A stretch of DNA of 64,000 bases from Vairimorpha necatrix. Lineage: Eukaryota. Within the stretch, counting starts at the first letter, position 1; the number at the start of each line of letters is the position of its first letter. A model generated the notes under the pieces. It was not told the DNA's origin. It made no database searches and worked only from the letters and a program-made list of their open reading frames with translations. Location: NCBI GenBank assembly GCA_036630325.1, contig CP142731.1, positions 434,001-498,000 of the forward strand, given 5' to 3'. Made by a program: the position numbers and the translations under genes. Of this stretch, positions 33,150-64,000 are shown in pieces.

Positions 33150-36100
33150 TGTGGTATTAACCACATGAGATTATTGACATCACAACGAATTTTCTAGAAA
33201 TTATTTTTGTATAAATAAAAATAATTCGTTTAGAGGCAATTATTTCAAGAAGAATGAACAACAACAAAAACAACAATAAATATGACAGCAACTACAAAAC
33301 TTAAATTAAACAAAATTATAAAGCTATAACAAATATAGTAGAGAGTTTTCTCAGTACGGGGAAGGTCCCACTGAGAAATACCACATTGAATTCAATAAGA
33401 AAATCTCAAGAGAAACAATCTACATATGAGATGCATCAAGATAGATATTATAAATTTGAATATACGATTAAAGGCACTAATATAAATATTAAGGAAAAAA
33501 TTTACAAAATAAAAAATATAAAAAAAGAATGTAACTTTCAGCATTTAGAAAAGTTCGAAAAAATTGCAAAAAGCAATAGTTGGACAGACCAACAAATGGC
33601 CTTAGTATAAAAAAGTCTACTTGACGACGATATAAAACATAACTTATCCGATGAAAGTTATATAAAATTGAGAAAGGAATTAAATGAAATTATCTACCTG
33701 AAATATGAAATAAAATTATTATGTAAAAGATTGGAAATTATTAAACAGGTAAATTTTTAACCATTGAAGAATATTACAATGAAATTGATCAAAAGATTAC
33801 CCTTTTAAGTAACGTTAACAATTATAGCAGTAAAGAGAGAGAAAGAAAAAAGAATGAGATCTTCGAAAATGGATTAGGAGAATTTACTAGTTTAGAATTG
33901 CTGAAACAGAATTTAGAAGGAGAATCTTTAAAAAATATTATAGGATATTAAAAAAAAATAGAAGAAGGAATCGTAATCCAAACCGAGATAAAGAATCTAA
34001 ACATTTATGAAAAATTGAGAGAAGGTAATCACAATAAGGTATATAATGAAGGAAATATCAATCATAACAAGTGGTGTTCGATACATAAATCTCGATCACA
34101 CAACACTCGAGAATGTTTTTTAAATCTAAAACAAAATAATTAAATAACAGAGAAGATAATAGTAAACAAACATATAATGAAACAAGGAATCTAATTATAA
34201 ACGAAGAAAAATGTAAAACCTTAGAGAATATTACGATTGAAGAAGAGTTCGATAACAACAAAATCAATCTAATTATTGACACTGGTTCGAATTACAATTA
34301 CGTCAATGAAGAAAGTGTTAATAAATATAAATTAACAGTTGAAGAAACTAAACCCATACTATTAACATTCAGGGGAGGAAAGAACGAAACTAGCAAAAAG
34401 AAAATTACACTAAATGTTAAAATTGCAAAAGGTCAATTTTTAGTAGATTTTTATGTTCTTCAAGAATTACTCGTACCTTTTATTTTAGGAAATGAATTTT
34501 TAGTGAATAATAGTTGCATGATCAATTATAAAAAAAGAATAGTTAGTATTAATGAGGATAACATAGTAGCAATGAAGGGAAGTGAAAGAACTACAGAAGA
34601 GCTATTAAATGATCAACTTAGTGAAAAGGTTTGTCTGTCAATTATTCAGGATTATCCGGAGTTGAATAAAGTTTTAAAGTTTTACATGGCCCCAAATTGT
34701 AAATTCTCAAGTATAAAAGCACCATGTTGCAAATTTTTTATTAAGAATAATAATAAAGTTATACAGTCTAAAGGATACCCTGTACCTGTTAAATATGTAC
34801 AACAAGGCCGTGAAGAAATAAACAGATTACTTAGGGAAGGTATAATCGAGGAAAGTAATTCGTTATTTACTAGTCCGGCATTCTTTATAAAAAAGAAAAA
34901 TAATGACTTACGACTAGTTGTAGATTATAAAAAGATAAATGAAATGTTGGAAAATGATCCTTGGGTGTTGCCTAAAATAGATGACTGTTTATTAGAAATG
35001 GGGAAAATCAATATTTTTCGCAGTTGGACCTACAAAACGGATTCAACCAAATAAAAATTGAAGAACCGAGTCAAAAATACACCGCTTTTATGTTACTAGG
35101 ACAGCAATATGAGTACAAAAGAGTCCCCTTCGGTATTAAGCCCGGACCTAAACTATTTCAACGATATATTTCAACCATACTTTCAGAGATACCAAATTTA
35201 TTCGTATACATTGATGATATTGTTATATTTAGCAATACAAAAGAAGAGCATCAGAAAATACTACTTAGAACATTACAAACATTACAAAAAAGTGAAGTCA
35301 AAATAAATTTTGAAAAGTCAAAGTTTTTTGTCCAAGAAATAGACGTACTAGGATTTAAGGTAAACGAAAAGGGAATATTTCCTAATACTAATTGTCTAAA
35401 CAATAAAATTTTCAGTCAAGAAATAAGAACTAAAAGAGATATTCAAAGGTTGATAAGTGTAATAAATTGGTATCGGAGATTTATTCCAAATTTGTCTACA
35501 AGAGTAAAGGATATTACCAACTTATTAAAAAACGATAAAAAAATGTTTTCTCAACACAAATGAAATAAACAATTGAAAAGATAAAAAATGAGATTAAAAC
35601 AAATGCAAAAATCGAATACCCTGATTATAAAAAGAAGTTTATATTAGAGACAGATGCCTCTGACACAGGAATTGGAAGCGTGTTGAGTGGGAAAGAAAGA
35701 GTTATAAGTTATTACTCGAAAAGGCTTCATGCCGCAGAATTGAACTATAGTATAGTAGAAAAGGAATATCTTGCTATGCAACTGTCCATGATTCATTTTA
35801 AGAAAATAATACAAGGGACTTACGTAGAAATATACACCGATAGTCATAACTGTACATTTGATAACAAGAGTTCTGCATCAAGAATAAACAGATGGAAACT
35901 CTAATGGACGAATACAATTATTAAACATACCACATAAAAGGAGAAATAAATGTTGTTGCAAATGTTTTATTCAGATGTTTATATTCAAGTATAGATGATA
36001 TAAAAATAATATGAGCAAGAAGTAAATAATGCTAGACTTTAAAGTTGACAATAAAATACAATTTGACAACAAAGGAAAGATAATTATAGACAATAACAAA

Positions 36101-37252
36101 TCCGAAGAATTTTTAAAAACAATACATGAGTTGGGAGGACATAGAGGAATTACCTGTATGTATTATAATATATAGAATTATTTATATATAAAAAACATTG
36201 TTAAGAAAATACATCAAGTTGTTAAAAATTGCACAACATGTACTAGAGTAAAGATAAAAAATATTAAAACTGACAAAAACAATAACATCGAAAGTAGGAA
36301 AGCAATAGAACGGATTTCAACAGACATATATGGTCCATTTAATGTTAAAGATTATAAGTCGGATTTTTAGGAGAGACAGGATACATATTGTCCATAACAG
36401 ACTTATATACGAGATTTACGAATTTAACCGTGTTTGAAAAGGTTAATACGAGGAAAGTCATTAGAGCTATTGATGAATGGATTGAAAGATTTGAAAGCCC
36501 AAAGTACATTATATCCGATAATGGCAAACAGTACGACAACCAAGAATTAAGAAACTACTTTATGAATAAAAAAATAAAGCAAATATTAGTACCTGAATTC
36601 ACGCCATCATCAAACGGCACTTCAGAAAGATTAAATAAATACATATCGTTTTCGCTAACTATAAATAAAGGAAAGAGTTTAAAACAGGTAGTGAATAAAA
36701 CTGAGAATAACATATATGTCAATTATAATAGGACAATAAAAGCTTCTCCAAGAGCCTTAGCCAAAGGATATGATTTCTATGACGTCCTAGGAATATATGA
36801 ACCAAGAAAAATAATGTATAAAAAGAAAAAATTAAAAAAAAATCAATGTTGGAGTCTTGGTATATAAGCGAAATTTAAGAGCCCGAAAATTGAACCCACA
36901 ATTAAACCGCAAATACAAAAAGTGATTAAAGTCGGAGCAAAGGGATTTTGGATCAAACTATCAGATGATTATGGACGGACTCACGTCAAAAATGTTAAGC
37001 TGGTTAGGTAGGGTAGTATAGGTATTAACCACATGAGATTATTGACATCTCAACGAATTTTCTAGAAATTATTTTTGTATAAATAAAAATAATTCGTTTA
37101 GGGGCAAGTATTTCAAGAAGAATGAACAACAACAAAAACAACAATAAATATGTTAGCAACTACAAAACTTATATTAAACAAAATTATAAAGCTATAACAA
37201 ATATAGTAGAGAGTTTTTCAGTACGGGGAAGGTCCCACTGAGAAATACCACA
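33150..37252 (+). mobile_element. Degenerate Ty3/gypsy element, palindrome-PBS type
   Basis: LTRs 33150-33385 and ~37017-37252 with several differences; TSD CCATG; TTGAATTCAA directly after the 5' LTR; PR (DTGS), RT (YIDD), RH and IN fragments. Confidence 0.92.
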
Positions 37253-37359
37253 CCATGACTTTATGATTTTTATTTTATTTGTTTGTTTTTTTATTTTTTT
37301 TTTCTGTTTATTTATTTTTAGTATAAATATTTATTTTTGAAAGAAGGGGAACAAGAAAT

Positions 37360-38627
37360 GGGAGGTGAGGTACCACAGTACCCCCCCCTCTGAGGATGTT
37401 TACTTTATTTTTTCGAACCCCAAAAACGAAGTGCAAAAAAGGTGGAGCAGGATGGGGACAAAAATTACTAAAACTTTATGATAGTAAAAATACATAATAA
37501 AATAATGAATGACTTAAAATTGAATTTTAAACCAAATTTTGTTTCTAAATATATGATATAAAAAAATTAAAATTTATACAAATTTATTTACTTTATCCTA
37601 GTTTTTATTTAATAGCGCTTAAAAATGACAGATTTCTATAGGGATGTCGAGAAAATAATGGAAAAATGATTTTAAGTACATTAGAAGGCAGATTTTGTCT
37701 ATTATGTCTTGGAAATGTACATCGACGTTTGGAAATACAAAATCAAATGCGTTGTGCCACAAAAAGATGTCGAAAAGAATATATAATTTCGAAAAAGAAG
37801 CCTTTTTTTATGCTAAATTGTCTTGGTTAAAAATATGCCAGGTTCTATATCTATTGTTTGAAAATACAACATTCAGAATGATAAAAAACCTACTTAATAT
37901 CCACAAAAAAAACAATCTATAGAATTATCAGAAAATGTAGTAAACATATAACTGGCAATAAAAAAAATAGGAAGTTCAGGTATAGTTGTAGAGATTGATG
38001 AATCTAAATTCGGAAAGAGAAAATACAACAAAGGCCAGAAAGTTGACGGTGTGTGGGTAATTGGGATGGTGGAAAGAACAGCCGAAAGAAGTCTAGTGCT
38101 TCTAAAAGTAAAAAACAGAAAAGCCGAAACTTTTGAAAGATTAATAAAAAAATTTGTAAAACCGGAAGTATTATATTTACCGACTGTTAGAAAGGTTATT
38201 AAATTTAAATTAATTGGGGTTGTACGAACACTACACTGTTAACCATTCTCTTGGTTTTATAAATCCAGAGAATGGTGTTCATACTAACACGATTGAAGGG
38301 ACATGGGCTGGTGTCAAAAGAGTGATTCCTGCCAGACATCGGACTGAAAAGGATATAAATCGTTATCTTAATTTATTTACTTTTAAAAGAAATAAACCTA
38401 TAAATACGTTCGAAATGTTAATAATTAAAGGAATTTTACTAATTCATCTTATTTTAAAATCAATTTTTATATCTAAATATATAATTAATTATGCATTTTT
38501 ACTATTATAAAGTTCTAGTAATTTTTGTCCCCTCCATGCTCCTCCTTTTTTTGCACTTCGTTTTGGAGGTTCGAAAAATAAAGTAAACACCCTCAGAGGG
38601 GGGGGGGTACTGTGGTATCTTACACCC
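37360..38627 (+). mobile_element. Merlin DNA transposon with frameshifted transposase
   Basis: ~110-bp imperfect TIRs starting GG; 8-bp TSD CAAGAAAT; VEIDESKFGKRKYNKG, VNHS, HTNTIEGTW motifs. Confidence 0.92.
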
Positions 38628-38841
38628 CAAGAAATTAATAAGAGCAATAACCAACACAAAGAAAACGGTTAGAAAAATAAAAAGAAATTTAATAAAAATA
38701 TATTAGAAATTTATTTAAAAAATGGGGATCTAACCCCGGCTCATCACAAGTATAAATACCCCTAGGAATGTACTTAGTATTGATATACGCAACTAGAGTA
38801 TAGAGTTTCATGAACTTAGATGGAGCAAATTTCAAAGTACC

Positions 38842-41800: not shown

Positions 41801-42030
41801 GGGGAATCCAAGAATAATTTCCTCGTCGACGTTTTCTAGCACTTGACATTATGAGGTTTTATGTCTTTCTTTATTTTTATGTATGGGGGTTTGTCCATAT
41901 ATTTTCATTTGCCCACTTATTCCCTTGATTGTAAATTTTGCTACAGTTATCTGTAATTTACATCTCCCTGCTATATTCTTTCTGATTATTGACTCAGCTG
42001 CTCCTATAATTAAAAATGTGTTTATTTTTC
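38842..42030 (-). mobile_element. Degenerate 5'-truncated Ty3/gypsy element related to the 27.9-kb element
   Basis: 3' LTR 38842-39191; PPT 39192-39206; integrase (IGIDLVGPLP, HGPPKEIISDQG), RH and RT (MPFG, IYLED) fragments. Confidence 0.88.
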
Positions 42031-42244
42031 TGTCAAAACTATCATAGAATTTTCTAGAGAAATATTTGTTATAAATAAAATCTCAGAAAGGAAGGGCACA
42101 AAAAAAAGGAGACATATGAGAGAAGAAGAGACTAAACAAGCTAAAGGAGCTTTGAACAACATATAATAATAAATAAAGATATTTATATTAAAAAAATTTT
42201 AGAGTTGTATTTACTCACCGGGGAAGTTGGCCCTAGATACCACA
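42031..42244 (+). mobile_element. Partial LTR related to the LTR of the 42578-44844 element
   Basis: Shares tgtcaaaact..., aaggaagggcac and terminal gataccaca with that LTR, in the opposite orientation. Confidence 0.7.
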
Positions 42245-42577
42245 GTACTTTATCAATTACTAATTTTGTTTTAGCAACTTCACCTTTTAGCTCTTTATTT
42301 ATTTCCTCCATATGCCTTTATACTACCGATAATTTTTAGCGTTGTTCTTTGGTCAAATATAATTTCTCTGTATTATTATCTTCATATCTATTAAAGAGCT
42401 CTTTATTACTCAAAACAAGACCTAATTTATATACTACATGTTTTTCCAACCAAGATTTAAATTCATCTTCCAAATTTTTAATGTCTCTAATTCTAATTGA
42501 CACGCTTCTGGCATTTCTATCGTAAAATTTCTATATTCTCTCAGTGTATTTATCAACAATGCAAATATCGAACAAAC

Positions 42578-44844
42578 TGTGGTATCCCGGGGAAACCCTC
42601 CCGGTTATAAAGTAATATTCTAAAATACTTTTAATAAATTGTTTTTTATTTGTTACAGTCCCTCTGGACTCTCTAACATGACGCTCTTTGGTCCTCTCAT
42701 CCATCTCCTTTTATGTGCCCTTCCTTTTCTGAAAATATATTTATAGTAAATTTTATTCATGAAAATTCAATGAGAGTTTTGACAGGGAGAGAAATAAAAT
42801 AAATGTTGAAGACTAACAGTCTACAACATCCTGCCCCCTCTCAAAGCTTTAGCTGTTTCCTGTGAAACCATCCTACTAATCCATGTACTTTGTACCATAA
42901 TCCATTTTTTCCCTTTTTGCACACCTTGTATGGTCCTATAAATTTTTTATCAAGTTTGTTTCTTGAAAAATTCTTCACATAAACAATGTCTTCGTTTTTT
43001 GGCACCTGGTCATAAATTTTTTACCTTGATCATTTTATTTCTAGATCTCTCTGTATTGGTATTTCCCTTTTTTTCTAAAAGGATCATAAAATCTTATATC
43101 GGTACTTTTATCTCGATATTTTACTACAGTATCGAACTGCTCTTTTAATTTTTTATTAGTAGTTTTAACAGCATTACATTCGCCTACTACTTCCATAATT
43201 TTATTATTTTTAATCCAACTACCTTTTCCAAATGCTTTATTTCTTTCATTCTTTGGTTTATTCCTGATATATTTAATATTAAAATCTTTAGTTTTCGCTG
43301 TATAATTTTTTACTTTTATCTTATCTTCTTTTTCGATTTTTTTATCTTCCACTATGCAAATTCTTTCAATCATTGCCTTGTCTGATGTCTTTTCTTCTAT
43401 TTCTTGGTATTCAATAAATTTAATCAATTTATTATCACACATTACCACTTTATTTTTGTAGTCTAGAATACAATTATTACCAAATAAAAAATCTCCACCT
43501 AAGATTACCTCATGCATACATTTATCAAAAATATATGGCTTAATAGTGTAATCTCTATCTACACCTTCAAATTTAAAATTAAATTCTGTTGATCTATTAG
43601 TAGCCATCACCTCGCCATTTGCTATAACTGTTTTAATTAACTTATTCTTTTTTGACTTTAAATTTAATTTATGGACTAGTTCTTTAGATATGAAGCTTCT
43701 GCTAGCTCCACTATCAAGTAATGTTTTTATTTTTAAGCCATTTATTTCGGCTCTTACCCTCGTTTCACTGATGGGATCTTTCACTTCTTCCATAATATTC
43801 ATTTCATCACTTCTTGTTTGGCGGTTATCATAATGCGCCTTTTTATCTTTATTTAGAAAACAATCAACTGAGTTGTGCCCATTGTGCTTACAATATCTGC
43901 ACCATTTCTTTTGTACAGGGAAATTATTGTCCCTAAAATTATTAGTAGCTTCTTCGTAGTTTCTCATATCCATGTTGTTGTTTCTTAACTTTAAAATTTC
44001 TTCCTCCATCGTCTTTAACTTCTTCATATATGCATCCAAATTATGCACATCAAGACTTTCAATTAGTATTCTCTTCGTTTTGCTACCTAAACCCTTCTTG
44101 AAGCATTCCCATAGCTTCCTGTTGTATTCTTCTCTGCTTATCTTATGGGCAATACTATAATATTTTATATAACTATTGATGTATTCATAATACTCACTTA
44201 TCGACTCAAAATTTTCTTGTCTTGCACTGGATAATTTATCAATCCATTCTTCCGCTCTATCAATACTATAAACTCTACTTAGAATTCTTTCGGTAATTTT
44301 ACTTAATTCTCCTTTAAATACTTTATCATCAATTGACTTATCACTTATTAAATCTCTTAGGATGAGCTCATACTGCTCACTGTTCCATTTATTTCTTAAA
44401 CTTATTTTTTCGAATGTTTCTAGCCATTCACACATATCAAAACTATAAATATCCTCTATGATATTTAACTCGGTCTCGATCTTCATATCCGTTCCTATAA
44501 CGGTGTAACTTAATTTCACTTTCTTCTTGTTAACCTCACTATGGTTAATCTTTTTGTAGCTCGTGCTCAAAATACTCGCACTTGAATTCAAGCTGTGGTA
44601 TCCCGGGGAAACCCTCCCGGTTATAAAGTAATATTCTAAAATACTTTTAATAAATTGTTTTTTATTTGTTACAGTCCCTCTGGACTCTCTAACATGACGC
44701 TCTTTGGTCCTCTCATCCATCTCCTTTTATGTGCCCTTCCTTTTCTGAAAATATATTTATAGTAAATTTTATTCATGAAAATTCAATGAGAGTTTTGACA
44801 GGGAGAGAAATAAAATAAATGTTGAAGACTAACAGTCTACAACA
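42578..44844 (-). mobile_element. Non-autonomous 2.27-kb LTR element encoding only Gag and protease
   Basis: 251-bp LTRs (44594-44844; 42578-42828) with no difference found by eye; TSD CAAAC; PPT 42829-42842; no RT, RH or IN core. Confidence 0.92.
43041..44720 (-). CDS. Gag-protease polyprotein (559 aa)
   Basis: CCHC knuckle WCRYCKHNGHNSVDC; LLDSGAS; ILGGDFL; starts inside the 5' LTR. Confidence 0.88.
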   Translation of the reverse strand: MDERTKERHVRESRGTVTNKKQFIKSILEYYFITGRVSPGYHSLNSSASILSTSYKKINHSEVNKKKVKLSYTVIGTDMKIETELNIIEDIYSFDMCEWLETFEKISLRNKWNSEQYELILRDLISDKSIDDKVFKGELSKITERILSRVYSIDRAEEWIDKLSSARQENFESISEYYEYINSYIKYYSIAHKISREEYNRKLWECFKKGLGSKTKRILIESLDVHNLDAYMKKLKTMEEEILKLRNNNMDMRNYEEATNNFRDNNFPVQKKWCRYCKHNGHNSVDCFLNKDKKAHYDNRQTRSDEMNIMEEVKDPISETRVRAEINGLKIKTLLDSGASRSFISKELVHKLNLKSKKNKLIKTVIANGEVMATNRSTEFNFKFEGVDRDYTIKPYIFDKCMHEVILGGDFLFGNNCILDYKNKVVMCDNKLIKFIEYQEIEEKTSDKAMIERICIVEDKKIEKEDKIKVKNYTAKTKDFNIKYIRNKPKNERNKAFGKGSWIKNNKIMEVVGECNAVKTTNKKLKEQFDTVVKYRDKSTDIRFYDPFRKKGKYQYREI

Positions 44845-46045
44845 CAAACATACCTAGAATCGCTCCCTATTTTCATACCAAGATCTGGATATATTTTTTT
44901 TTCATTTTTATGTTTAGGAATTTCCACGAATTTAGACTCAAGGGGTATAATCTTAACCCGCCTCCATAATGCATAATCAGTTGAGGAGAAGAAAGACAGA
45001 TCGTCCATGGCAATAACAAAATTAGTTCTTAATTTAAATCTTACTATAAAATTATCATATAAATTTCGAGCTGATATTTCATCTGAACCACATAATTTTT
45101 TAATGAATTCTGTTTTCAATTTACCAGCCTCTGGTTCAGAAACAAATGCTACCTTAATTGTTTTTAGTCCCTTGACAACGGGATTTGCAGTATTCCCGTT
45201 ATTACTTTCATTCGAAAAAAAACTTGACTTTAAAGTATCTGAAAACCTTCCAAAAACTAATGATAAAGAACGCATTAAAAGACTCTTTCCATCACTTCCT
45301 ACTCCTGTAAAAAATAATAAATTATCATTTGGTTTCCTACTATCCAACCAGTTTGCCATAGTGATTACTGCATATTTAAATACATTGGGATCAGAGAAAA
45401 TTGACTTTAACAGACTAAATGCCTTATGTGTATCTTCATCTTTTTTATAGTCAAAGTCGAAGCATTTGGAAAATAAATCGGCATCGGTGTATGCCCGACC
45501 CAAATACGTCTTCAAATCATATACGCATGTCTTCATCGGCAACACGTAAAGTCTTTGTCAAGTTTTTCTTCAAAACTCGAATCATCCATAGATAAGTATA
45601 ATCCCTACATGGCCTCCCCAGCCAAGCCTGCTCGGTCTATATCAGTCACAAATCTGTACCTTGCCCTTGCTAAATGGACTTCAATCTCATCACTTTGTAC
45701 AAAGTCAGTGAATGCCCGTAAAAAAATCCTTTAATGAATTAACAATAGCTGAATTAAGGCCTTTACTAGACACCTTCTTCCATATATACCTTTCTCGTTC
45801 AAAGAGTTGTAAGTTAGACAATTTAAATTTTTTAAAATAAGATGACAATTTAGATATTTCCTCCATTACTTCACCAACTGGTGTTCTAATGATCTTCAAT
45901 AATAATTTCATCTCGCTTTCTGTATATTTAGATATTATTTCATCCATTAACAATATTTGCTCTAAATTATCACACTTAGATTCACTTCTAGGAATCGCAG
46001 GTGGATTAATTTTAATTAACTTATTATAAATTTTGCTGTTATCTT

Positions 46046-49000
46046 TGTGGTAGACTACCACCTAGTAATCAGCAATGTAACCAATAATCAGCTTTTAAAC
46101 AGTTTCATGTTGAAACTCAAGATTCTCATCAATAATCTAAAACAATAGTTTCATAATAAAATATAAAAGAGAAAATTTTGTAAATAAATATGGTTTTCAA
46201 CAGAAACAACTCTTTTAACTACTCAGCTCACTCTTCACCTTACACCGGTTACCATACGTTGAATTCAACGTTCAAAGATTCAAGACCATCTAAAGCTTCA
46301 AGAAGAAACAACATCTTATCAACTCAACCTAACTTAACAACTCTACCTCAAGAACCAACGGAAGCATTTACATTCGCTACCAAAGTAGGCGAGCAAAAAG
46401 GACCAAATATTCAAATCGAAAAATTATACGATCTCGATTTGCAAGATGTCCATAAATGGACCGATAAATACAGAAACATAATCAACTTGTCGTCAATGGA
46501 AGAACCCACAGCATTATATACGTTACATCTCTTAATCAGTCCAGAACTTCTCTATATTATAAACCCAGCATTGGATGCAGAGGAAGCACTTCAACTTTTA
46601 GTAAACCACTATTATAACCCATCAAGATTTTCAATCTTCATCAACCAACTAAGGAATTTGAATTACAAAAACTACAACAATATACAGCAGTTTACAAAAG
46701 CATTTTTAACAATTCTAACTAAGTGTAATTTATGTTTACAAATTAATGAAAGGCTCACCACTCGAGAAAAGAATGAAATTTTTTGCAGAAGCTTGCCATT
46801 TTGGATGAAACAAGAAATAGTAAGAAGTTCAGAAAACAGCAACTTTGAAAGCCTAGCTAATCTTCTAGCACCCTTGGAACTATTACGCAACTCATCAAAC
46901 TATGAACAAAGGGAAGAAAAAACTGAAAGAAGATCTCATCTAAACTATTTTAGAAAAAACTCTTGTAGTACAAATCAAGACGATTTAAGACAACATAACC
47001 GAAATTCCCAGTTCCCATCACAAAAATCTATTAATCAATGGTGCAAATACCATAAAACCACGAAACATAGCACGGAAGAATGCAGGAAGATGAAATCATT
47101 CAATCAAAATAAAAGTCATAATAATTATTCATCTTTTAACCTAGTTCGAGAAAAACCTACAACACCAGACAAAATTGAATTTATGGGAACAATAGAAGGC
47201 GCACCAGTTACGATTCTATTCGACCCTGGGGCCACACTTTCATACATTTCAGAAAAAACATCCAGAAAATTAAATTTAAAACAAATCGAAGTGGATGGAA
47301 AATTGGTCGCAGAAGTCGCAAATGGAGACACCATCAAGATCAATCATAAGACCGATATAAAATTTAGATTGGACGCAATTAAAGATACAACATTCAAACT
47401 TTCCGCATTCATTATGCCAGGCATGAGACAAGACATTACTTTAGGACTCCAATTTTTAGGAGCACAAGACTTTAAGATGGACCTGAAGGAAGGATTGATC
47501 TCATTGAACAATAAGGAAATAGAAATTCCAGGTTTTAACACGTTCTATAAAACTCATCCTGATAAAGAAATTATAGATAAAATATTTAACATTCACTCAG
47601 AACTCATTAGTAACAAAATAAAAAAAGCTAAAAAAGAGAATAAGGAACTAGGAAAAATTGAGACGATTACACATAGTATTTCACTTAATTCTGCGCAACC
47701 AATAACCTCGAAACCGTACGCGATACCGACCAAATTGTATCAACAAGTTAAAGACGAAATTCATAATTTACTTAAAAATGGAATTATTCGAGAAAGTTAC
47801 TCACCCTTCGCATCTCCCGCTTTTCCAATCCAAAAGAAGAATGGCAACATAAGACTCGTTATCGATTATCGTAAACTTAATAGTATCACAGTAAAAGAGG
47901 CCTTTCCCTTCCCTAGCTTAAAGGACCAAGTTCACGGCTTATATGGATGCTCTAAATTTTCTCAGTTAGACTTAAACAAAGGTTATTATCAAATTCTCGT
48001 ATCAGAAGAGGACATACCGAAGACCTCCTTCATCACTCCGTTTGGTCAATACGAATTTTTACGGATGCCTTTCGGATTAACAAATGCACCAAGAACGTTC
48101 CAACGAGCAATGCAATCCATACTCGGCGACTTACCTTTTGTCAAAATATTTTTAGACGATATTTTAATACATAGTAAATCTACAGAAGAACATGCTATAC
48201 ACCTAAAAACAGTTATAGAAAAACTTCAAGGAGCAAATTGTTCTATCAATTTCGACAAATCCGTATTTAACAAGAGCGAAGTTAAATATTTAGGATTGAT
48301 TATCGACAAGGAAGGAATTAGAGCCGACACATCGAGAATTACATCTATTGATTTAATTAATAATCCAACTACAGTAAAGCAAGTACAAAGATTACTTGGA
48401 ATCTTTAATTGGTTTCGAGATTTTATTCCAAATTTAAGCACTAAACTCGCAAAACTGAACGCAAAATTATGTAAAAAAGACAAAGAAAAATTCTGTTGGA
48501 CAGACGAAGACACAAACATCAAACAAGAAATTATCCAAATTATTAAATCACAAATACTATTACATCATGCCGATCCCGAAAAAGAATTTCAGCTAAGAAC
48601 AGATGCAAGCGATCATGGTATAGGAGCTATCTTATGTCAAGACACAAAAATAATAGGAATCTTTAGCAAGAAATTCACATCTCCCGAAAAGAATTACACA
48701 ACTATTGAAAAAGAACTTTTAGCTATCATTGAAGGCCTTAAACATTTTAAAAATCTGATATTTGACACTAAAGTAACCATTTACACAGATTCAAAAAATT
48801 TAACCTTTCTTGGCTCAGCAAGCTCACAACGTGCCCAAAGATGGAAAATACTTCTAGAGGAATTTAATTCTTCAATAAAGCATATAAATGGCAGTGAAAA
48901 CCAAGGACCCGATTACTTTTCGAGAATATACAGCATCCAATCGATTACCAAAAATTCGAAATTTCCCATCTTTTACACTCTGAAATCATTATACAAGGCC

Positions 49001-50303
49001 CAAACCGATAACCCTGTGCCGCAACACATTAAAAATAATCTAGGGTTAAACTGTACACAATTTGACAATTACAATCTTCTCCATTCAAATTATAAAATAT
49101 ATGTTCCTGAAAGAAACGCCAAAAAATACATAAAAGAAATTCATGAATTCCTCAATCATGCCGGAATATCTCGGTTATACAGTACAATTGCCAAATTTCT
49201 TAAAATTTATCAGTTACGAAGTCTCATCGAAGAAGTAATAAAGAATTGCAGAGTTTGTGAAATAAATAAACCTAGGAGAACAAATTATGGCTACGTTTCT
49301 GGTTTCCTACATTCTACAACAAAGTTAAAAAACATTGCATCGGATTTATATGGACCGATAGATCTTCGTCATTTCCAAGAGGAAGGTAAAGGCTATATAC
49401 TATCAATAGTCGATAGCCACAGCAGATATACGAAATTAATTTTACTGTTGTCTATTACAGGGGAAAAGGTGGTTAAAGAAATAGAATCAAAATGGATCAA
49501 AGAATTCGGACCACCATCGAGTATACTTACTGATCAAGGACGTCAGTATACTTCAAGTGAATTTGAAAGATTTTGCCAAAGGTATCACATTAAGCATAAA
49601 ATGACATCAACCTACAACCCTACTTCTAACAGCATAACAGAAAGAACAAACCAACTCATCGGATTAGGACTACGATGCAATTTGGACAATAATATTGGTG
49701 ATGTGATTCACAAGATTCAGGAGGGAATAAATAACAGTCACAACCGATCAGTCGGATTTTCGCCAAACGAAATAATTAACAACCATAGTATCTTTGACCC
49801 AATTCAAAGACCTTTAAATTGCAGCGAGGGAAATGTAAACCGGATAGCAATTACAGAAGCGAAGAAAAATAATATTATATTAAATTCAAAACGGCAAACA
49901 CAATTTAAATTTAAAATTGGAAATTACGCTTATGAAAAAAATATATTTAGGACGAAGTTAGACCCTCATTGGTTAGGACCCTTTTTAATTATGGACGTGA
50001 AAGCGAACAACAATACAGTATTGGTAGATAAAATCGACAAGTTACAGTGGATCAATATAAAACGACTTAGACCCTCTCGACGGGGGGAAACCTGTGGTAG
50101 ACTACCACCTAGTAATCAGCAATGTAACCAATAATCAGCTTTTAAACAGTTTCATGTTGAAACTCAAGATTCTCATCAATAATCTAAAACAATAGTTTCA
50201 TAATAAAATATAAAAGAGAAAATTTTGCAAATAAATATGGTTTTCAACAGAAACAACTCTTTTAACTACTCAGCTCACTCTTCACCTTACACCGGTTACC
50301 ATA
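46046..50303 (+). mobile_element. Intact young Ty3/gypsy element, palindrome-PBS type
   Basis: 211-bp LTRs (46046-46256; 50093-50303) with one mismatch seen; TSD ATCTT; PPT ggggggaaa; termini TG..TA. Confidence 0.97.
46190..50134 (+). CDS. Single-ORF Gag-Pol polyprotein (Gag, PR, RT, RNase H, integrase)
   Basis: 1314 aa uninterrupted; WCKYHKTTKHSTEEC, LFDPGAT, FLDD, TDASD, HHCC, DLYGP/TDQGRQY/ITER, GPF. Confidence 0.96.
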   Translation: MVFNRNNSFNYSAHSSPYTGYHTLNSTFKDSRPSKASRRNNILSTQPNLTTLPQEPTEAFTFATKVGEQKGPNIQIEKLYDLDLQDVHKWTDKYRNIINLSSMEEPTALYTLHLLISPELLYIINPALDAEEALQLLVNHYYNPSRFSIFINQLRNLNYKNYNNIQQFTKAFLTILTKCNLCLQINERLTTREKNEIFCRSLPFWMKQEIVRSSENSNFESLANLLAPLELLRNSSNYEQREEKTERRSHLNYFRKNSCSTNQDDLRQHNRNSQFPSQKSINQWCKYHKTTKHSTEECRKMKSFNQNKSHNNYSSFNLVREKPTTPDKIEFMGTIEGAPVTILFDPGATLSYISEKTSRKLNLKQIEVDGKLVAEVANGDTIKINHKTDIKFRLDAIKDTTFKLSAFIMPGMRQDITLGLQFLGAQDFKMDLKEGLISLNNKEIEIPGFNTFYKTHPDKEIIDKIFNIHSELISNKIKKAKKENKELGKIETITHSISLNSAQPITSKPYAIPTKLYQQVKDEIHNLLKNGIIRESYSPFASPAFPIQKKNGNIRLVIDYRKLNSITVKEAFPFPSLKDQVHGLYGCSKFSQLDLNKGYYQILVSEEDIPKTSFITPFGQYEFLRMPFGLTNAPRTFQRAMQSILGDLPFVKIFLDDILIHSKSTEEHAIHLKTVIEKLQGANCSINFDKSVFNKSEVKYLGLIIDKEGIRADTSRITSIDLINNPTTVKQVQRLLGIFNWFRDFIPNLSTKLAKLNAKLCKKDKEKFCWTDEDTNIKQEIIQIIKSQILLHHADPEKEFQLRTDASDHGIGAILCQDTKIIGIFSKKFTSPEKNYTTIEKELLAIIEGLKHFKNLIFDTKVTIYTDSKNLTFLGSASSQRAQRWKILLEEFNSSIKHINGSENQGPDYFSRIYSIQSITKNSKFPIFYTLKSLYKAQTDNPVPQHIKNNLGLNCTQFDNYNLLHSNYKIYVPERNAKKYIKEIHEFLNHAGISRLYSTIAKFLKIYQLRSLIEEVIKNCRVCEINKPRRTNYGYVSGFLHSTTKLKNIASDLYGPIDLRHFQEEGKGYILSIVDSHSRYTKLILLLSITGEKVVKEIESKWIKEFGPPSSILTDQGRQYTSSEFERFCQRYHIKHKMTSTYNPTSNSITERTNQLIGLGLRCNLDNNIGDVIHKIQEGINNSHNRSVGFSPNEIINNHSIFDPIQRPLNCSEGNVNRIAITEAKKNNIILNSKRQTQFKFKIGNYAYEKNIFRTKLDPHWLGPFLIMDVKANNNTVLVDKIDKLQWINIKRLRPSRRGETCGRLPPSNQQCNQ

Positions 50304-50943
50304 ATCTTATTTATTATAATCTCGAAATTGTTGATTAACCTATAAGGTTCTGAATCTTTATACGCCAACAGTTATAACACGATCTTTAGGAGGAGAACTC
50401 ACAACATGCGTATTTTCTCTCAAAACATGTTTTAAATCATTCTTATTAGTAAATGCATTTAAAATAACATGATTCAAAAATTTTGTAGCTGGAATTTCTA
50501 TCACACCTTCCCCATCATATTCAAAACAAAACACCTTTATTACATGTTGATTGCCAGTAATCATCAACTGCTGCTAAATACAACCTACCTGATTCAAAAA
50601 TCAAATCTATTATCTTACAATCTAAAACATTTTCAGTTCTCATTTCTAGACCACCTTTACATTCTTCATCATAGCATTTTAAATTAATGTTATCTTTAAA
50701 AATCAAAATCATTCCATGATTTCGTTTATGGGGTCGTTCTTTTACTATACATGTACCCTCGTAAGGCACAATCACGCAATCGGTTTTAATGATATGTACT
50801 AATAATTTGATATAAGGCAGTCTATAAGCCGCCAAAATTGCTACAGATCAATTAAAAAAGCACATTTTACAATAAAAACCCCGTCTACATTCAAACTCGT
50901 TTGTTTTCTGGGAGTCGCAGGTGGCCTTCCTGGCATTATTGAA

Positions 50944-57055: not shown

Positions 57056-57979
57056 AACGATTGTGTCCATAATGACACTTACTATGTAGAGTTTGTACTT
57101 CCAATTTCATTGACTGTACCTTACTCTCTACAACTACCCTATTATGTAAGCCAGAAATATCTCTTAGAAAGAGAATATTATCTGCAAGAAGGAACTTTTC
57201 GGCATTTTACCTCGGCCTATACCTTGCTTGTTTGTCGATGATCGTGGTAAAATCATCTCCTTAAACGATTTTTACCAGAAGATCATACTCTTCTTGAGTT
57301 TTGATTCTTTTCATTGATGGGATAAAAAAATATTTTCCAAAAAAGTTAAAATTTGTTTGAATATACTAATTTTTCTTTATGCTTAAGCTTTTTGGCTCAG
57401 TGGTTACTATTGCGTCTTTGACTTTAGTATTTTGGATCAAGCATCATATGGGTAAAAATTTAGTAGAAAAATTAAAAATAGTTCACGTGATACAACTAAC
57501 GAAACTTGGCATAAATTATGAAAATATAGATCATAAATAAAAATTAAAAAATACAAGAAAATAATCTGGTAACAGTCCGGCTCGGGCAACCAGTTGGGCT
57601 CGCGACATTTAATACTCCAATAACACCAAGTTTTTTAATAACATTTTACATACAACAGAATGTACTTCGTTTTTATATTATTGAAATATAGGTTGCTAGT
57701 AATTTTGGCCTTCGCTTTTCTATTTTTAAAACTCATTTTGTGTTGTAATTTTATAAAAATTGAATGTCCAAAAAAATCGATTTAAAAGTATACAACCCTA
57801 TGTCATATATATATTGGACGCATCCAACGGCGGAGCTCGTGTGCCACAATAATGCAAAAATAATTAAAAATGATAGAATTTTGATATCAATAAATTTAAA
57901 AGAAAATCGGAAATTGTGTAAAAAAAACATCAGTTTAAAATTTAATTGGCCCTTTTACAGGGAAAGAAAAGAATGAATG

Positions 57980-59117
57980 GGTCAATTTCCACTTTACACT
58001 CCCCTTCTACATATAAAAATACAAATTTTAAAAATATCCCTTTTTTGGAAAACCAAAATGGAAAAAAAAGGAGGAGAAAATTTTAAAATAATAAATTTAT
58101 TAATTCATCAAAATAATTAAGTTTTGAATTTCTAAGCAACATAAATCTTAATAAATAGGGTAGTATTAAATCTTTTGTTATACATCTTACCGGTGTTATG
58201 CGTCTAACGGCAGACCAATTCCCTTCTATAGTGTTAGTATGAACACCTGTGATAGGATCTACAATCACTTACTATGGTTAACTGTTTTGTGAGACCCAAG
58301 TCTCGATCATTTTCGAATATCCTTTCCACGTATCAGAATAGACTGTTGATTGTTTATCAACATATGTGGAAATTAGACTTAATAACGTATCTTTATCTTT
58401 ATTTGGAACAGGAACTAAAAGAATTTTTCTTTCTAAAGTCCTTTCGACCATCCTAAATACCCACACTCCCTCTACTTTATGTCCAACGTTGTATTTACGA
58501 TTTCCAAATTTGCTTTCGTCTACTTCGACTATTATCTCCGAACCGCCTAGTGTTCCTTTTGCCTTTTTCATGTATTTATGATAAACTTCATCAAGCAAAA
58601 ACTGTTGAAGACATCTCGATACAATGCTGGGTGAAATACTTAACAACTTGGCGATTAGGAGAGGCGGAATTTTCGTAAGCCAGAGGTTTAGAATCTTTAA
58701 CATTAGTATATAATCCAAGTGGGTTTTTGCAAATATCGTATCTGTAAAAAGGTTCCTCTCTTTTTTTTTGCATTTTTTACCAATGTATCTGACAGCGTTT
58801 CCCTTTTGCTGTATTTTCTTAACATCTTTACCACATTTGCTGCATTTTTTAAAAAGTTTTTCTTTTATCTTTTCGTATGCTATGTTAATTTCCTCGTTGG
58901 TAAGCATAAAATAGGGTACAGGAAAAAAAATCTATAATCGGTGCTACTAAAGAACTAAGAACTTATTTTTACTTATAAAACAAAGAAATAAGTCCAATAA
59001 ATAACTTATTCGATTGTTTTGTTTATTCATTATCTATAAAAAAAACAAAATATATACTAATAAATATGTAACATAAGGTGAATTATAGTATCATATTTGT
59101 TTTTATATGGTAAAATT

Positions 59118-59155
<38 letters not shown>

Positions 59156-59297
59156 CATTTGTATAAAAGATAATTTAAACAGTACTTTTTTTATTTTTTT
59201 TCTCCTCCTTTTTTTCCATTTTGGTTTTCCAAAAAAGGGAAATTTTTAAAAATTTGTAATTAAATATGTGGGGGGGGGTGTAAAGTGGAAATGCTCC
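57980..59297 (-). mobile_element. Merlin DNA transposon (transposase 58907-58083, one frameshift)
   Basis: ~100-bp imperfect TIRs; VEVDESKFG, YSDTWKGY, HTNTIEGNW motifs; TSD degenerate; (AT)n tract in the 5' part. Confidence 0.9.
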
Positions 59298-60659
59298 GAG
59301 TGATGCTATAAATTATGATATGGAAGATTTTTACATCTGTTTGGAAGCATCAGATGTATACAAAAAGCATGAAATATGTCATTGCACGTTCATAGTATCT
59401 AATGAAACTGCCCGTTTAGATTTTAGAATTCCAAATGTGATAAGGGGTTAAATTCGATATTATTATTATTTTAAGACGATTCGTAGGCGTTTATTTGTCT
59501 TAATAATATTGAATTTAAGGACACAAAAAACTATTCAACATATATATATATATATTAAGAATATTAGAGTGTATAAAACAAGATGTAACTTACATATTAG
59601 AAAAAATGTGTGTGGTATTTGAATAATATAGAAAGATGTGAGATAATTCCTTAATAGAGAATGAAACGTTTCAAAATAAAAATGATGAAGGATATAAAAA
59701 GAAAGCTCATATTGTTTTAGTATGTTAAGTGGTTCAAGAAAAAGAAAATCGTTGTAATAACAAATAAAGTCCGTTACGATTTATTGTTGATTTTTATTGT
59801 TCAAATATATATTTTTTCATTCATTGTTTCGTGGAGAGATTGCATAACCTTTAAAGATAATTATAGTACTACAAAGTTGTGAATTGCAGTCTAACACTAG
59901 AATATTTAAACAAATTTTTTAACCCTTCATTATAAAATGATTTTTATCATCACTTCACAATATCAATAGATGTGTGACATATTTACTTGTTTAAATCTAT
60001 TTGTCTAATTATATGAAATATTCAAAAGCGTGAGGATTTTTCCTTAAATTCCTCTTAACATATGAATAGTAAAAATATATATTTTAGCTTGATTTTGAAA
60101 CTTAGAAAAAAATGTGAAGTTGCAATTTCGAAAAATTGTTTTTTAAATCGCATAAATCTCAAAAATTTAGTTTTTTTTCTTGTTTTATTACATTTATCTT
60201 CTCCTATTTAATCGAGACTTCATTCTATTATCACATTCATCGTATAATAAAATAAGTCTTGATCAGCAAAAACTCAAAAGGGCTAAATTCGAATATAGTT
60301 GCGGATTTTCGATATATTGGCTCTTTTTTCGAGTAAAAAAGGTCAAAAAAAAGAAAAAACTCTATATCGAAATTCACTTTATACTCGACTTGAACAAAAA
60401 AAACGACAATGGACGATTACAATATTACAAATGATATTGTCTTCCAGTGTTTATGTCGTTATTTCGAAAACCTTACAAGAGCTCTTGCTTCTTTCTAGAA
60501 ATCTAAAAAGTATTTCTCCACATCTCTTTATACAATATACTCAACTAGTTTTAGTATGATAATAGTTAAAATATGAAAAATTACATTTAGGAAAAAGTTT
60601 ATGTTCTTCAAAGCATATATATAAAAATTTATTGAGATATTTTACCCCAAAGCTTATAT

Positions 60660-61974
60660 ATTAATAGCACGGCTTTCCCCGGTATCGCTCATGGGATTAA
60701 GCTCTATACAGACTTTGGTTTCTATGGAATTATTTATGTTTTTCAACTTTAAACTTTCAGCTTAATTCCTCTTTCCCGACACCACTTCTTTAACAGTTGC
60801 CATATTCGCTAGTGCGCTTACAGCTCTAGCCACTTCTTCCTCTCCTGCATCCTCCTAACCATAACCTCGTTGTCGTTCCAAAGAGATGAACTCTAGAGTC
60901 TTCTTCATTACAATAGATTTGATATATGCATCCAGGTAGGGTTAGATTTCCAGATCCCGATGTAATTATGTGATATTTGTTCACCGCTCAATTCCATGTC
61001 ATTACATAAGGAGCTATACTTGTCCAGGATTTATTTATTAGTCCCAGTTCATATGCAAGAAGGTCCATGTTCTAAGTTTGCCGTTCTCGGCTATAGTAAG
61101 TCGATCCCGGAAGGTTGTACCAACTTTAACTATTTAAATTTCTTTCTTCTTCTTGTCAAACACAAGAATATCAGGCTTATTATGGGTCACCTTTATATTA
61201 GTGAATATTCTCGTATCTACTCTTATGTCTGCACGATCATTTTCCATGATATCTTGTACTGAGTGTCCACGTGTTTTTTTTTGTCCTTTTAAACCCATAT
61301 TTATTACATAGTAAGAGATGAATGCATCTAACTACCTCGTTGTGTCTTTTCATATAATCAAAGCCATCATTCGATCACACTTGGGAGGTAAATGATCCAC
61401 GGTCTTCCTATGAGATCCATAATGGGAACATTGTCCTTCTTGGCCACAGAAAATAGTTCTATTCTGTAGGAAGCAGTAAATTGCTTCGGATTTAGCCCGA
61501 TTGTTTCCTTTAACCAGCCAGTTAGAAGAGTCCTTAATGCTGACCAAAATATTGTCACTGACCTTCAAAAATTTTCCATGGTTTGTCCTTATGTCAATTT
61601 TGTTGTATAGCGCTTCTTTTTGTGATTCTATTAGCATCTTCTAGGTTATCTCTCCTACAAAGCTATACCTAATCCTTAGATACTCGTTAAATGTAAACAA
61701 GTGGGATTTGCTCTATGTCTCTACTTTAAGTATCGCTAACAGTCTTAGTGAGCTCTTTCTAGAACCATCTAATGTTATTTAAATATTCAGAAGCATACCT
61801 TCGCTTCTATCTTCGATACTTATGAGACCTCTACCCATTTCGGATCTAGGTAGGTATAGTCTTTCCTTGCAGGCAGGCAGTAGATGGACCTGGTACTTGA
61901 TAAGTACCTGTCGTATATCAAAATCAAGATTTTTGTAATCTATTGGTTCTAATTTTAATAATCCTAAATGCTAG
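60660..61974 (-). mobile_element. 3' portion of a degenerate RLE-type (R4/Dong-like) non-LTR retrotransposon
   Basis: ERLYLPRSEMGRGL, CCHC-like QCSH..RKTVDHL..KC, HNEVVRCIH, NKPDILVFDKKKKE, PYVMTW; interrupted by the next gypsy. Confidence 0.85.
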
Positions 61975-61976
61975 TG

Positions 61977-64000
61977 TGATGACTTTTATTAATGAATGTG
62001 AAACATCATCACATTAATCATTTAGTTTACAATATTTTCTCAAACTAAATGTCATTCATTTGTTTGTTTGTTTACAAACAATTAAATATTTAAAAATAGC
62101 CCCTCACCAAAAAAAAGGATGATGAACCATAAAAATAATAAATCTCAATATAGTAAAAATAACATGTACAAACAACAATTAAATAATCTCATTGAGACGT
62201 ACCTCCGCTTGGGGTACGTCAAGTTGAATTCAACGAGTGAAATCCCAAGCAAGGTGAAACTGTCGAAATACCAAGGGAAGCAGGCAGAAAAACTAAAAGG
62301 AAAATATATTACATTTGAAACCAAAATAGAAGGTTTAGAACAAAGGTTCACTACAGACATCTATTACATTGAAGATATACGGTCAATAGATATTATAGAA
62401 TGGTTAAAAGAGATCGAGAAAATCTCAGAAGAAAACCAATGGAATTCTAAACAGCTCATGATGGTAATTAGGAAAATGAGTAAAGACTCATTGATCGAGC
62501 AAGAGAGGATAGTGGAAGATTTTTTCTCCACACGCGATTATCTGATCGGTCTTAGATTTCCGATAGAACATAGCAGAAGCATATTAACAGAACTAGCTTC
62601 TATCAAACAGTTAAGCTATGAAACCATACAAGAATACGTTCAAGAAATTAAGGAACTTGTTAACATTTATGCTGTAATTAATAAACTTTCAAAAACAGAG
62701 TTCAATAGGCGAGTAGAAGAGACTTTTTACAATGGACTTGGTCCATATACAGATGGAGAGCTTTTCAAGCATGAATTTAAAGACTATAAAGATGCAATTA
62801 GATTTCTTTACACGTTAGAAAAGAAAATAGTATCTAAACAAGTAATACTAGAGAAGAAAGTTTTAGATCCTATAAGGAAAGAACCCTATAAAGGGACTTT
62901 AGAGGTAGTAAGCAATAACAAGTGGTGCAAATACCACAAGAAGAATGATCACGATTCAAAGGATTGCGAGACTTACCAGAAATTTATAAACGAAAAAATT
63001 AAGAATAGGGATGAAAAACAGAAAGGAGAGACTAGGAACTTGATTATTAGCGAGAAAGGAATAAATACTAAAACACCCGAACTACAAGGGGTAATTAAAA
63101 AATACCAAACGTCATTTTTTATGGACTCGGGAGCTTCAAGGAACTTCATAAAAAGAGAAGTTGCCCTTAAGCTAAAAATACCTATCGTCGAGGATTCTCC
63201 AATAACTATAAAATACGGAAATGATGACATGGAAGAGTGTACTGAGACAGTTAATGAGGAAATTAAAATAATAGGAGCTAAGTCAAGCCACGTAGTTAAA
63301 TTTTACTTACTGAATAACTTACCAGTCGAATTTGTATTAGGAAACGAATTTCTTAGTAGTAACGAAGTAATAATGAATTATAAGAATCAGACTATAATAA
63401 TCAACGGTGATGTGATCAGTACAAAGAACCAAGAAGACAGTGAATCAGACATCGAAGATTTAGATAAAATTTTAATTGAAAGCCTGTGTCTGTCTTTAGA
63501 AAATCTCAATAACGACGAATTAAAACGTTTCATTTATTCATATGTAAAAACCAATTCTTCTTATAAACAAATAAAAATAGCACCGATAGAAATAAGGATG
63601 AGACAAGACATTAAAACACCTAAACCAAAATTCTACAGTGTTCCACATAAACATACAGTCGGAGCTAAACGAGAACTACAAAGGTTACTAGAAAATGATA
63701 TAATCGAACTCTCAGATTCGCCATATGCCAGCCCGGCATTTTTAATAGAAAAAAAGAATAAAGATTTGAGACTGGTGGTCGATTATAGAGAAATAAACGA
63801 ATATGTCATAGATGAGGTTGCGGCAATACCCAATATAACAGAAAATATTATGCAAATGGGAAGCGCTAAATGGTATACAAAAATCGATCTGAAGAACGGT
63901 TTCAACCAACTATACATAAAACCCGAAAGTCGGAAATTTACGGCGTTTACATTATTGGGAAGACAATACCAATACAAAAGGGTCCCATTTGGAATTCGTT
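61977..64000 (+). mobile_element. Ty3/gypsy element, palindrome-PBS type, running off the window
   Basis: 5' LTR ~61977-62221 (start uncertain by ~2 bp); GTTGAATTCAAC at 62223-62234. Confidence 0.88.
62119..64000 (+). CDS. Gag-Pol polyprotein, partial (absent from the ORF track because there is no stop in the window)
   Basis: Open frame from ATG 62119: WCKYHKKNDHDSKDC, MDSGAS, SPAF, LRLVVDYR, KIDLKNGFNQ, YKRVPFG. Confidence 0.9.
   Translation, partial: MMNHKNNKSQYSKNNMYKQQLNNLIETYLRLGYVKLNSTSEIPSKVKLSKYQGKQAEKLKGKYITFETKIEGLEQRFTTDIYYIEDIRSIDIIEWLKEIEKISEENQWNSKQLMMVIRKMSKDSLIEQERIVEDFFSTRDYLIGLRFPIEHSRSILTELASIKQLSYETIQEYVQEIKELVNIYAVINKLSKTEFNRRVEETFYNGLGPYTDGELFKHEFKDYKDAIRFLYTLEKKIVSKQVILEKKVLDPIRKEPYKGTLEVVSNNKWCKYHKKNDHDSKDCETYQKFINEKIKNRDEKQKGETRNLIISEKGINTKTPELQGVIKKYQTSFFMDSGASRNFIKREVALKLKIPIVEDSPITIKYGNDDMEECTETVNEEIKIIGAKSSHVVKFYLLNNLPVEFVLGNEFLSSNEVIMNYKNQTIIINGDVISTKNQEDSESDIEDLDKILIESLCLSLENLNNDELKRFIYSYVKTNSSYKQIKIAPIEIRMRQDIKTPKPKFYSVPHKHTVGAKRELQRLLENDIIELSDSPYASPAFLIEKKNKDLRLVVDYREINEYVIDEVAAIPNITENIMQMGSAKWYTKIDLKNGFNQLYIKPESRKFTAFTLLGRQYQYKRVPFGIR

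Follow-up and report, generated by a model that had tools for sequence, protein, structure and literature searches.

The 64,000-nt stretch of the Vairimorpha necatrix genome analysed here (contig CP142731.1 of GenBank assembly GCA_036630325.1, positions 434,001 to 498,000 of the forward strand; hereafter the window) carries four long terminal repeat (LTR) retrotransposons of the Ty3/gypsy type, termed A to D, in which a short palindrome within the gag frame occupies the slot expected for a primer-binding site (PBS). Elements A, B and C show the TG...CA ends (TA in C) and 5-bp target duplications of Ty3/gypsy LTRs, and element C also has the typical domain order of protease, reverse transcriptase (RT), RNase H and integrase, as identified by Pfam. 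It is intact and small (4258 bp), with one open reading frame (ORF) in which a gag with a CCHC knuckle precedes these domains; no Pfam match to a chromodomain was found in this 1314-aa ORF. Element A is decayed, with a stop codon 30 codons upstream of the palindrome. Element B (42573-44849, minus strand) is a 2.3-kb gag and protease derivative which has kept both its target duplication and its palindrome, the aspartyl protease being the only Pfam match in its 559-aa ORF; probably it is not autonomous and is mobilised in trans. The LTR start of element D at 61975 is backed by loose contig ends at that position in sequencing run X1.

The palindrome-carrying copies moved recently, because the LTR pairs of B and C are identical and because an empty-site form of C exists: contigs of run X1 join position 46040 to 50307 with 3 letters between. 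The presence of this form identifies C as an insertion polymorphism in the X1 sample. At the palindrome sites themselves, the contigs from DNA sequencing runs over the window showed no variants among the matches listed.

A reading of this DNA made from the sequence alone (the sequence-only reading) had placed a self-complementary site 0-2 nt after the 5' LTR in the four elements. This placement is borne out by LTR pairs and target duplications, from which the LTR ends of A, B and C were set; the LTR ends of D and of five related loci described below (L060, L220, L221, L259 and L293) are putative and were read from the sequence. With 211-251 nt, the LTRs of A to D are short; their last two bases are CA, or TA in C. 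At the junctions, ...ATACCACA runs directly into TTGAATTCAAT in A; ...ATACCACA is followed by GC and TTGAATTCAAG in B (minus strand), ...TTACCATA by CG and TTGAATTCAACGT in C, and ...GTACGTCA by AG and TTGAATTCAAC in D, which has a single LTR within the window. The 10-nt palindromic core thus lies 0 nt from the LTR end in A and 2 nt from it in B, C and D. None of the four has a TGG-type PBS after its 5' LTR.

Table 1. Positions in the window of the features of elements A to D, and of an ordinary PBS in another element.
Feature	Position	Strand	Remarks
Element A target duplication	33145-33149 and 37253-37257		CCATG
Element A 5' LTR	33150-33385	+	236 nt, TGTGG...CCACA; LTR pair 97% identical
Element A palindrome	33385-33396	+	ATTGAATTCAAT; core starts right at LTR end; first A is the last base of the LTR
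Element A 3' LTR	37018-37252 (start approximate)	+	from LTR pair and target duplication
Element B 5' LTR	44594-44844	-	251 nt; LTR pair 100% identical; target duplication GTTTG
Element B palindrome	44581-44592	-	CTTGAATTCAAG; core 2 nt (GC) past LTR
Element B ORF	43041-44720	-	559 aa, gag and protease; start within 5' LTR
Element B 3' LTR	42578-42828	-	from LTR pair and target duplication
Element C 5' LTR	46046-46256	+	211 nt, TGTGG...CCATA; LTR pair 100% identical; target duplication ATCTT
Element C palindrome	46256-46271	+	ACGTTGAATTCAACGT (16 nt); 12-nt part common to all copies at 46258-46269
Element C single ORF	46190-50134	+	1314 aa; starts in 5' LTR, ends in 3' LTR
Element C 3' LTR	50093-50303	+	purine run GACGGGGGGAAACC directly before
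Element D 5' LTR	61975-62221	+	247 nt; 3' LTR past window end
Element D palindrome	62223-62234	+	GTTGAATTCAAC; core 2 nt (AG) past LTR
Element D ORF	62119-63999	+	627 aa to window end: gag, protease, start of RT; begins inside LTR
Ordinary PBS	28246-28255	+	TGGCGACAAC; 2 nt past LTR (27894-28243), element of a different lineage

The core TTGAATTCAA has four exact matches in the window (33386-33395, 44582-44591, 46259-46268 and 62224-62233) against 0.56 expected, a count reached by none of 100 shuffles, while copies with one mismatch show no excess (10 found, 13.25 expected). The four are therefore specific sites rather than instances of a word frequent in AT-rich genomes (GC here 30%). Other palindromes of the form xTG....CAx, at 8517, 44362 and 57881, were set aside as none adjoins an LTR end, and degenerate copies of the motif in the U3 regions of B and C (LTR position ~62) are at chance level. 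An Rfam scan of the window gave no matches. The bases flanking the core are complementary in each element and differ between them, A-T in A, C-G in B and G-C in C and D, as the sequence-only reading had noted, and in C self-complementarity extends across 16 nt. Also in agreement with that reading, the gag frame runs through the site as Leu-Asn-Ser in all four; the complementary flanking bases are the third position of one codon and the second position of another. The polyproteins of the four elements share only 22-44% identity over the aligned pieces, measured to C.

We evaluated whether protein coding accounts for this sequence. From the codon usage of each element, TTG AAT TCA is expected for Leu-Asn-Ser at 0.9-2.2%, and the product over four intact ORFs (B, C, D and the related locus L060) is 7e-8. 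Given this codon choice, the site is conserved as nucleotides, beyond what the protein needs.

Searches for relatives in public contigs retrieved five further DNA copies at the same place, TTGAATTCAA twice and ATGAATTCAT, ATGACGTCAT and CTGATATCAG once each. A metagenome scan kept 80 loci, two of them with a gag of this clade (L060 and the decayed L059, see below). L060 reads ...GGTTGACA, TT, TTGAATTCAA, A, in frame and 26 codons past its ATG; other TTGAATTCAA matches in the metagenome loci lie inside ORFs and were discarded as chance. In prokaryote genome records, three loci extend to the gag N-terminus, and each of them shows a perfect in-frame palindrome beginning 2 nt past ...CA: ATGACGTCAT in L220, CTGATATCAG in L221 and ATGAATTCAT in L259. 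A repeat search of the genome bin of L259 added one more site, ATTGAATTCAAT in L293. Nine loci were examined in that search, and the site is present in L293 and in L284, the latter being the contig of L259. The remaining seven, three of which lack the N-terminus, show no palindrome of 12 nt close to where the ORF begins, and those on contigs covered by the earlier gag comparison have no similarity to the gag of the clade. Altogether, the contigs of a single genome bin hold four different 10-mers (TTGAATTCAA, ATGAATTCAT, ATGACGTCAT and CTGATATCAG). Viral contigs yielded 58 matches to the pattern of LTR end plus palindrome, none with polyprotein similarity and hence all chance, and a protein-based scan of such contigs gave 80 loci, none with a clade gag. 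In the nine DNA copies now available (A to D and the five relatives), the 10-nt core follows the LTR end or putative end (...CA; TA in C) after 2 nt in eight and after 0 nt in A, and neither a TGG nor any other conserved primer-site candidate follows the LTR in any of them.

Dozens of eukaryotic gypsy contigs, this clade included, are filed under bacterial metagenome-assembled genomes (Clostridium sp., Anaerovoracaceae, Aeromonas sp.), the affected entries being loci L219-L222, L231, L243, L259 and L276-L304 and proteins P0029 and P0056. These contigs are bin contamination.

Aligning the nine DNA sites reveals a 12-nt helix which is complementary in all 54 cells (nine sites by six pairs), with changes on both sides at three of the six pairs. 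The outermost pair occurs as GC (four copies), AU (two), UA (two) and CG (one), the next as UA (six), AU (two) and CG (one), and the central pair as AU (seven), CG (one) and UA (one). None of 500 shuffles reached the covariation score, and in slid registers only 22-53% of cells pair. Preservation of the palindrome by co-variation, claimed by the sequence-only reading for the four window copies, thus extends to nine of nine. Eight of the nine sites were found without regard to the outermost pair, and we estimate that ~0.07 palindromes of this class would occur by chance per locus in the searched stretch. The helix has a defined length, since each of the two pairs beyond it is complementary in just four of eight copies. 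Positions 2-4 (T, G, A) and 7-9 (T, C, A) are invariant in all nine copies, and the encoded residues change (LNS, MNS, MTS, LIS) while the dyad stays. Because the two adjacent central bases co-vary, a hairpin is excluded and a duplex of two strands fits; the RNA alone folds only into a mini-hairpin of 4-6 bp. No conserved hairpin displays the palindrome in its loop, as a retroviral kissing loop would, and what is found is a self-complementary 5' sequence kept in evolution, as expected of a dimer site. Taken together, these data make it very likely that self-complementarity is selected at the PBS slot, and the palindrome probably acts through intermolecular pairing of nucleic acids.

Just upstream of the palindrome, a U5 hairpin is stable in A (33339-33384), D (62196-62221) and L259 (positions 1911-1925), with z of -2.5 to -3.3. 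It is not seen in B, C, L060, L220 and L221, and being strong in three of eight contexts only, it was rejected as a general feature. Encoded in this stretch is a conserved motif of the gag N-terminus, h-x-x-[YF]-[LF]-x-x-G-x-x-P, which is present in many relatives with differing nucleotides.

Protein databases extend the comparison. Residues 1-1200 of element C, used as query in a full HMMER search, gave 150 representatives, ~45 of them single-ORF proteins of 1000-1370 aa; word-based protein searches found distant gypsy elements only. Named sources of the relatives are Nosema granulosis, Enteropsectra breve, a Mikrocytos transcriptome and contigs under bacterial metagenome-assembled genomes. 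In an alignment of 30 relatives, Leu-Asn-Ser is the only consensus in an otherwise unconserved N-terminus. Its variants (LNS, MNS, MSS, LSS, LIS, MIS, LHA, LDP and LNL), each taken with the next residue, are all readable as an in-frame 10-nt palindrome, so that the N-termini of ~30 further relatives appear to fit the palindrome rule, with codons deduced from the protein; the types obtained in this way are TTGAGCTCAA, TTGATATCAA, TTGCATGCAA, CTGGATCCAG and TTAAATTTAA. A generic test for any in-frame 10-nt palindrome was too permissive (4.7% background), and narrower, anchored tests were used instead. The narrow class, a tripeptide readable as xTG-NNN-NCA-x upstream of a gag anchor, is present in 31 of 43 N-terminally complete relatives, compared with a mean of 11.5 and a maximum of 22 in 1000 shuffles; two control stretches taken from these proteins scored 7 of 43 apiece. 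When sites were called without using the outer pair, the codon after a first Met (ATG) could begin with T in all 8 N-terminal cases, compared with 21 of 65 in other parts of the proteins (Fisher 3e-4); with Leu first, the figures are 30 of 38 against 262 of 365, a comparison without power. A tree-based test of independent pairs (7 of 7) was given no weight, being circular with sites called by palindrome compatibility.

In the Met-type variants (proteins P0029, P0070, P0131 and P0081; loci L259 and L220) the palindrome includes an ATG, and several database proteins begin exactly there. The palindrome of these elements may thus cover the gag start codon, a picture that gene callers reading TTG starts as Met could blur. 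One clade member with Met-Asn-Ser-Ser, P0033, comes from the transcriptome of Mikrocytos mackini (Rhizaria), where it could reflect horizontal transfer, a co-infecting microsporidian or contamination.

Mapped on an RT-RNase H tree, as the sequence-only reading had suggested doing, all rows with a palindrome, whether confirmed in DNA or deduced from protein, fall into one group of 37 rows (support 99; FastTree, local supports only). The palindrome is therefore a trait of one microsporidia-associated gypsy clade. That reading had also assigned the other gypsy elements of the window an ordinary PBS matching a serine tRNA; what stands of this is that another element carries TGGCGACAAC 2 nt past its LTR, and that the sequence recurs at 27336 and, with one mismatch, at 25304 on the minus strand. 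In the tree, the TGG-PBS element of the window and a related fragment lie outside the palindrome group, beside loci with canonical TGG sites.

How might such a site work? We propose that the 12-nt palindrome serves this clade as its PBS equivalent through self-pairing. Two genomic RNA copies would anneal through the palindrome abutting U5, and the resulting 12-bp duplex would link the RNA dimer. A cut in one strand at the duplex's 3' edge, for which the element's RNase H is the presumed enzyme by analogy with Tf1, would then leave a 3'-OH paired to the other RNA from which RT could copy U5 and R. The outcome would be self-priming in trans, for which a host tRNA would not be needed. We put the probability of this reading, in which the palindrome is both priming site and dimer link, at a little under one half (about 0.45). 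Since the site sits where minus-strand synthesis must begin, priming of one RNA on the other is the simplest model. The sequence-only reading had likewise proposed tRNA-independent priming, for example by annealed RNAs, one of them cleaved; this is now partly supported by the PBS slot, the covariation, the lack of a cis complement and the variety of palindromes, and with them the nucleotide constraint, the restriction to one clade and the recent mobility, all of which are observed.

Several points weigh against self-priming in trans. Pairing in trans, dimerisation, cleavage and priming are all deduced from sequence, and the predicted gain in energy of a homodimer (cofold) is the same as for many shuffles, so the energy model is uninformative. 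A long RNA primer comprising R, U5 and PBS poses a difficulty when plus-strand strong-stop DNA is made, and with a palindromic PBS one strong-stop DNA could anneal to another. With regard to the comparative data, L220, L221, L259 and L293 were found via a search for perfect palindromes, which partly selected their inner pairs, and the codons of the ~30 relatives known from protein are deduced ones. The decayed L059, with 18 in-frame stops, has TCGAATTCAT at the homologous place (Ser-Asn-Ser-Phe) and retains just the central 6 nt of the palindrome, GAATTC. Five full-length clade proteins (P0049, P0081, P0093, P0140 and P0159) have no such site; their annotated starts may lie downstream of it.

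Among the alternatives, the palindrome could be solely a dimer-linkage or packaging signal as in retroviral leaders, with another molecule or site serving for priming. Covarying self-complementarity is just what a dimer site requires, and retroviral dimerisation palindromes of 6-16 nt do exist, some of them, according to passages of PMC5874298, inside the PBS of human immunodeficiency virus 2 (HIV-2) and mouse mammary tumour virus (MMTV). Against this, the position is fixed 0-2 nt from the LTR end, the point that defines the start of minus-strand DNA. None of the nine copies offers a TGG-type or other conserved candidate downstream, there is no LTR complement above the chance level, and a second primer site would need to overlap the palindrome. 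We consider this explanation unlikely.

The dyad might instead act as DNA, as a site for a dimeric protein or the integrase or as a single-stranded structure during strand transfer. Perfect dyads are typical of dimeric-protein sites, the TGA..TCA invariant in nine of nine copies resembles bZIP half-sites, and L220 holds TGACGTCA. These invariant bases are, however, also fixed by the codons (xTG Axx TCA), and the positions outside them vary always as complementary pairs, with four types at the outermost one, a pairing that protein contact does not need. With the site lying downstream of the start codon, inside the transcript, action as DNA seems distinctly improbable.

LTR elements as a rule are primed in trans by an ordinary partner. 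Here this could be a host tRNA, half of one taken from its interior (the copia and Ty5 type) or some other small RNA; primers of the half-tRNA kind do without TGG, as described in part of PMC6317226. Yet a fixed partner would freeze the positions of the site, while three of its pairs differ, always symmetrically. A fixed host tRNA is unlikely because the palindromes vary within one window, at the outermost pair, and within one genome bin, which holds four 10-mers. A perfect dyad through the centre is also unlike a tRNA arm with its 7-nt loop, and the only tRNA-like call of the window has no match. We therefore give this explanation very little credence. The call in question, a tRNA-Met reported by ARAGORN at 17575-17647 (minus strand), has an irregular-looking anticodon arm and is not confirmed by Rfam, whose tRNA model gives no match at the gathering score; a pseudogene or an unusual tRNA may lie here.

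Cis self-priming of the Tf1 type, in which the transcript would pair its own 5' end with the site by folding back, would agree with the single gag-pol ORF, the lack of TGG and the short LTRs, features that passages of PMC4600332 give for Tf1 and Tj1. The sequence-only reading had put the LTR complements at 5-6 nt at most, and we find the longest Watson-Crick complement in the 5' LTR to be 5-7 nt in five of five elements, no more than shuffled LTRs give (66-289 of 300 reach it). Moreover, cis priming would not need a palindrome, and the chromodomain is absent in element C; we regard this mechanism as very unlikely. That Leu-Asn-Ser is simply a conserved gag motif, or the product of chance, with the palindrome as by-product can be dismissed, since even with a conserved peptide motif (h-x-x-[YF]-[LF]-x-x-G) encoded by differing nucleotides just upstream, the improbable codon choice, the retention of the dyad while residues vary and an outermost pair linking the third position of one codon with the second of a different one are foreign to coding constraint.

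Some further features of the window were observed. The U3 of element A (33190-33201) holds TTTCTAGAAA and that of element B (~44770-44786, minus strand) holds TTGAATTTTCA (GAAnnTTC), both upstream of the TATA box; we take these to resemble heat-shock elements. Between 50468 and 62400, contig depth of sequencing run X2 is very high and uneven (up to ~10,000) with many joints, the region being a mosaic of highly repeated families. A 561-aa minus-strand ORF (4167-5852) contains tandem repeats of 42 nt, 62-77% identical, at 4981-5262.

A survey of transposable elements in microsporidia describes microsporidia-specific gypsy groups with a single polyprotein, and in its main text the terms PBS, primer, tRNA and palindrom do not occur (PMC4202319). 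We found no description of a palindromic PBS in the searched full-text literature, a search that did not include the 2006 paper on Nosema bombycis LTR elements or the supplements of that survey.

Priming sets the ends of every LTR element and binds it to host tRNAs. If self-priming in trans is correct, this clade would be independent of host tRNAs, which is notable in microsporidia with their reduced genomes, and genome dimerisation and priming would be merged in one 12-nt motif. More tentatively still, the pattern of sites might represent a third priming mode beside tRNA priming and cis priming of the Tf1 type, in which packaged RNAs prime each other and dimerisation and priming are a single interaction; in Met-type elements the duplex could switch the RNA from translation to packaging. 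Element C, which is small, intact and recently mobile, offers a testable model for how non-tRNA priming arises. In practical terms, annotation tools that seek a tRNA-complementary PBS will miss or misplace these elements, and the motif of ...CA, 2 nt and xTG-NNN-NCA-x in the gag frame is usable as a marker of the clade.

Comparison with known systems places the clade more precisely. It shares the Ty3/gypsy architecture and the 5-bp target duplication with Ty3 and Ty1. In Ty1 the gag start likewise lies inside the LTR, and the PBS of Ty3 is short, with 8 nt at 2 nt from U5; unlike the clade described here, Ty3 and Ty1 use initiator tRNA-Met as primer. The PAL palindromes of Ty1 are reportedly separate from its PBS. 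To Tf1 and Tj1 the likeness is closer: as far as passages of PMC4600332 and PMC6317226 describe them, those elements have no tRNA PBS, draw the primer from their own RNA, as the present clade would, form a duplex of ~11-12 nt abutting U5, encode a single gag-pol ORF and have an RNase H that is the natural candidate for the cleavage. In those elements, however, the partner of the PBS is the beginning of the same transcript, in cis, whereas the palindrome described here is its own complement and has none in the LTR, so that the partner must be a second molecule. The Tf1/sushi lineage also carries a chromodomain, which element C does not, and the elements described here form a separate, microsporidia-associated clade.

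Retroviral dimer palindromes, such as the 10-nt one of SL-A in murine leukaemia virus and those in the PBS of HIV-2 and MMTV, are similar in that sequences of 6-16 nt in the 5' genomic RNA pair between genomes, according to parts of PMC5874298. Those viruses keep a full tRNA PBS, while in the present clade the palindrome alone fills the PBS slot and lies within the gag frame. Skipper of the dictyostelids is, in passages of PMC5006619, another Ty3/gypsy lineage with neither a TGG PBS nor an LTR complement, for which the authors proposed an unknown kind of self-priming. Skipper is a chromovirus in which a polypyrimidine run replaces the PBS, whereas in the microsporidia-associated clade a palindrome of mixed sequence takes that place.

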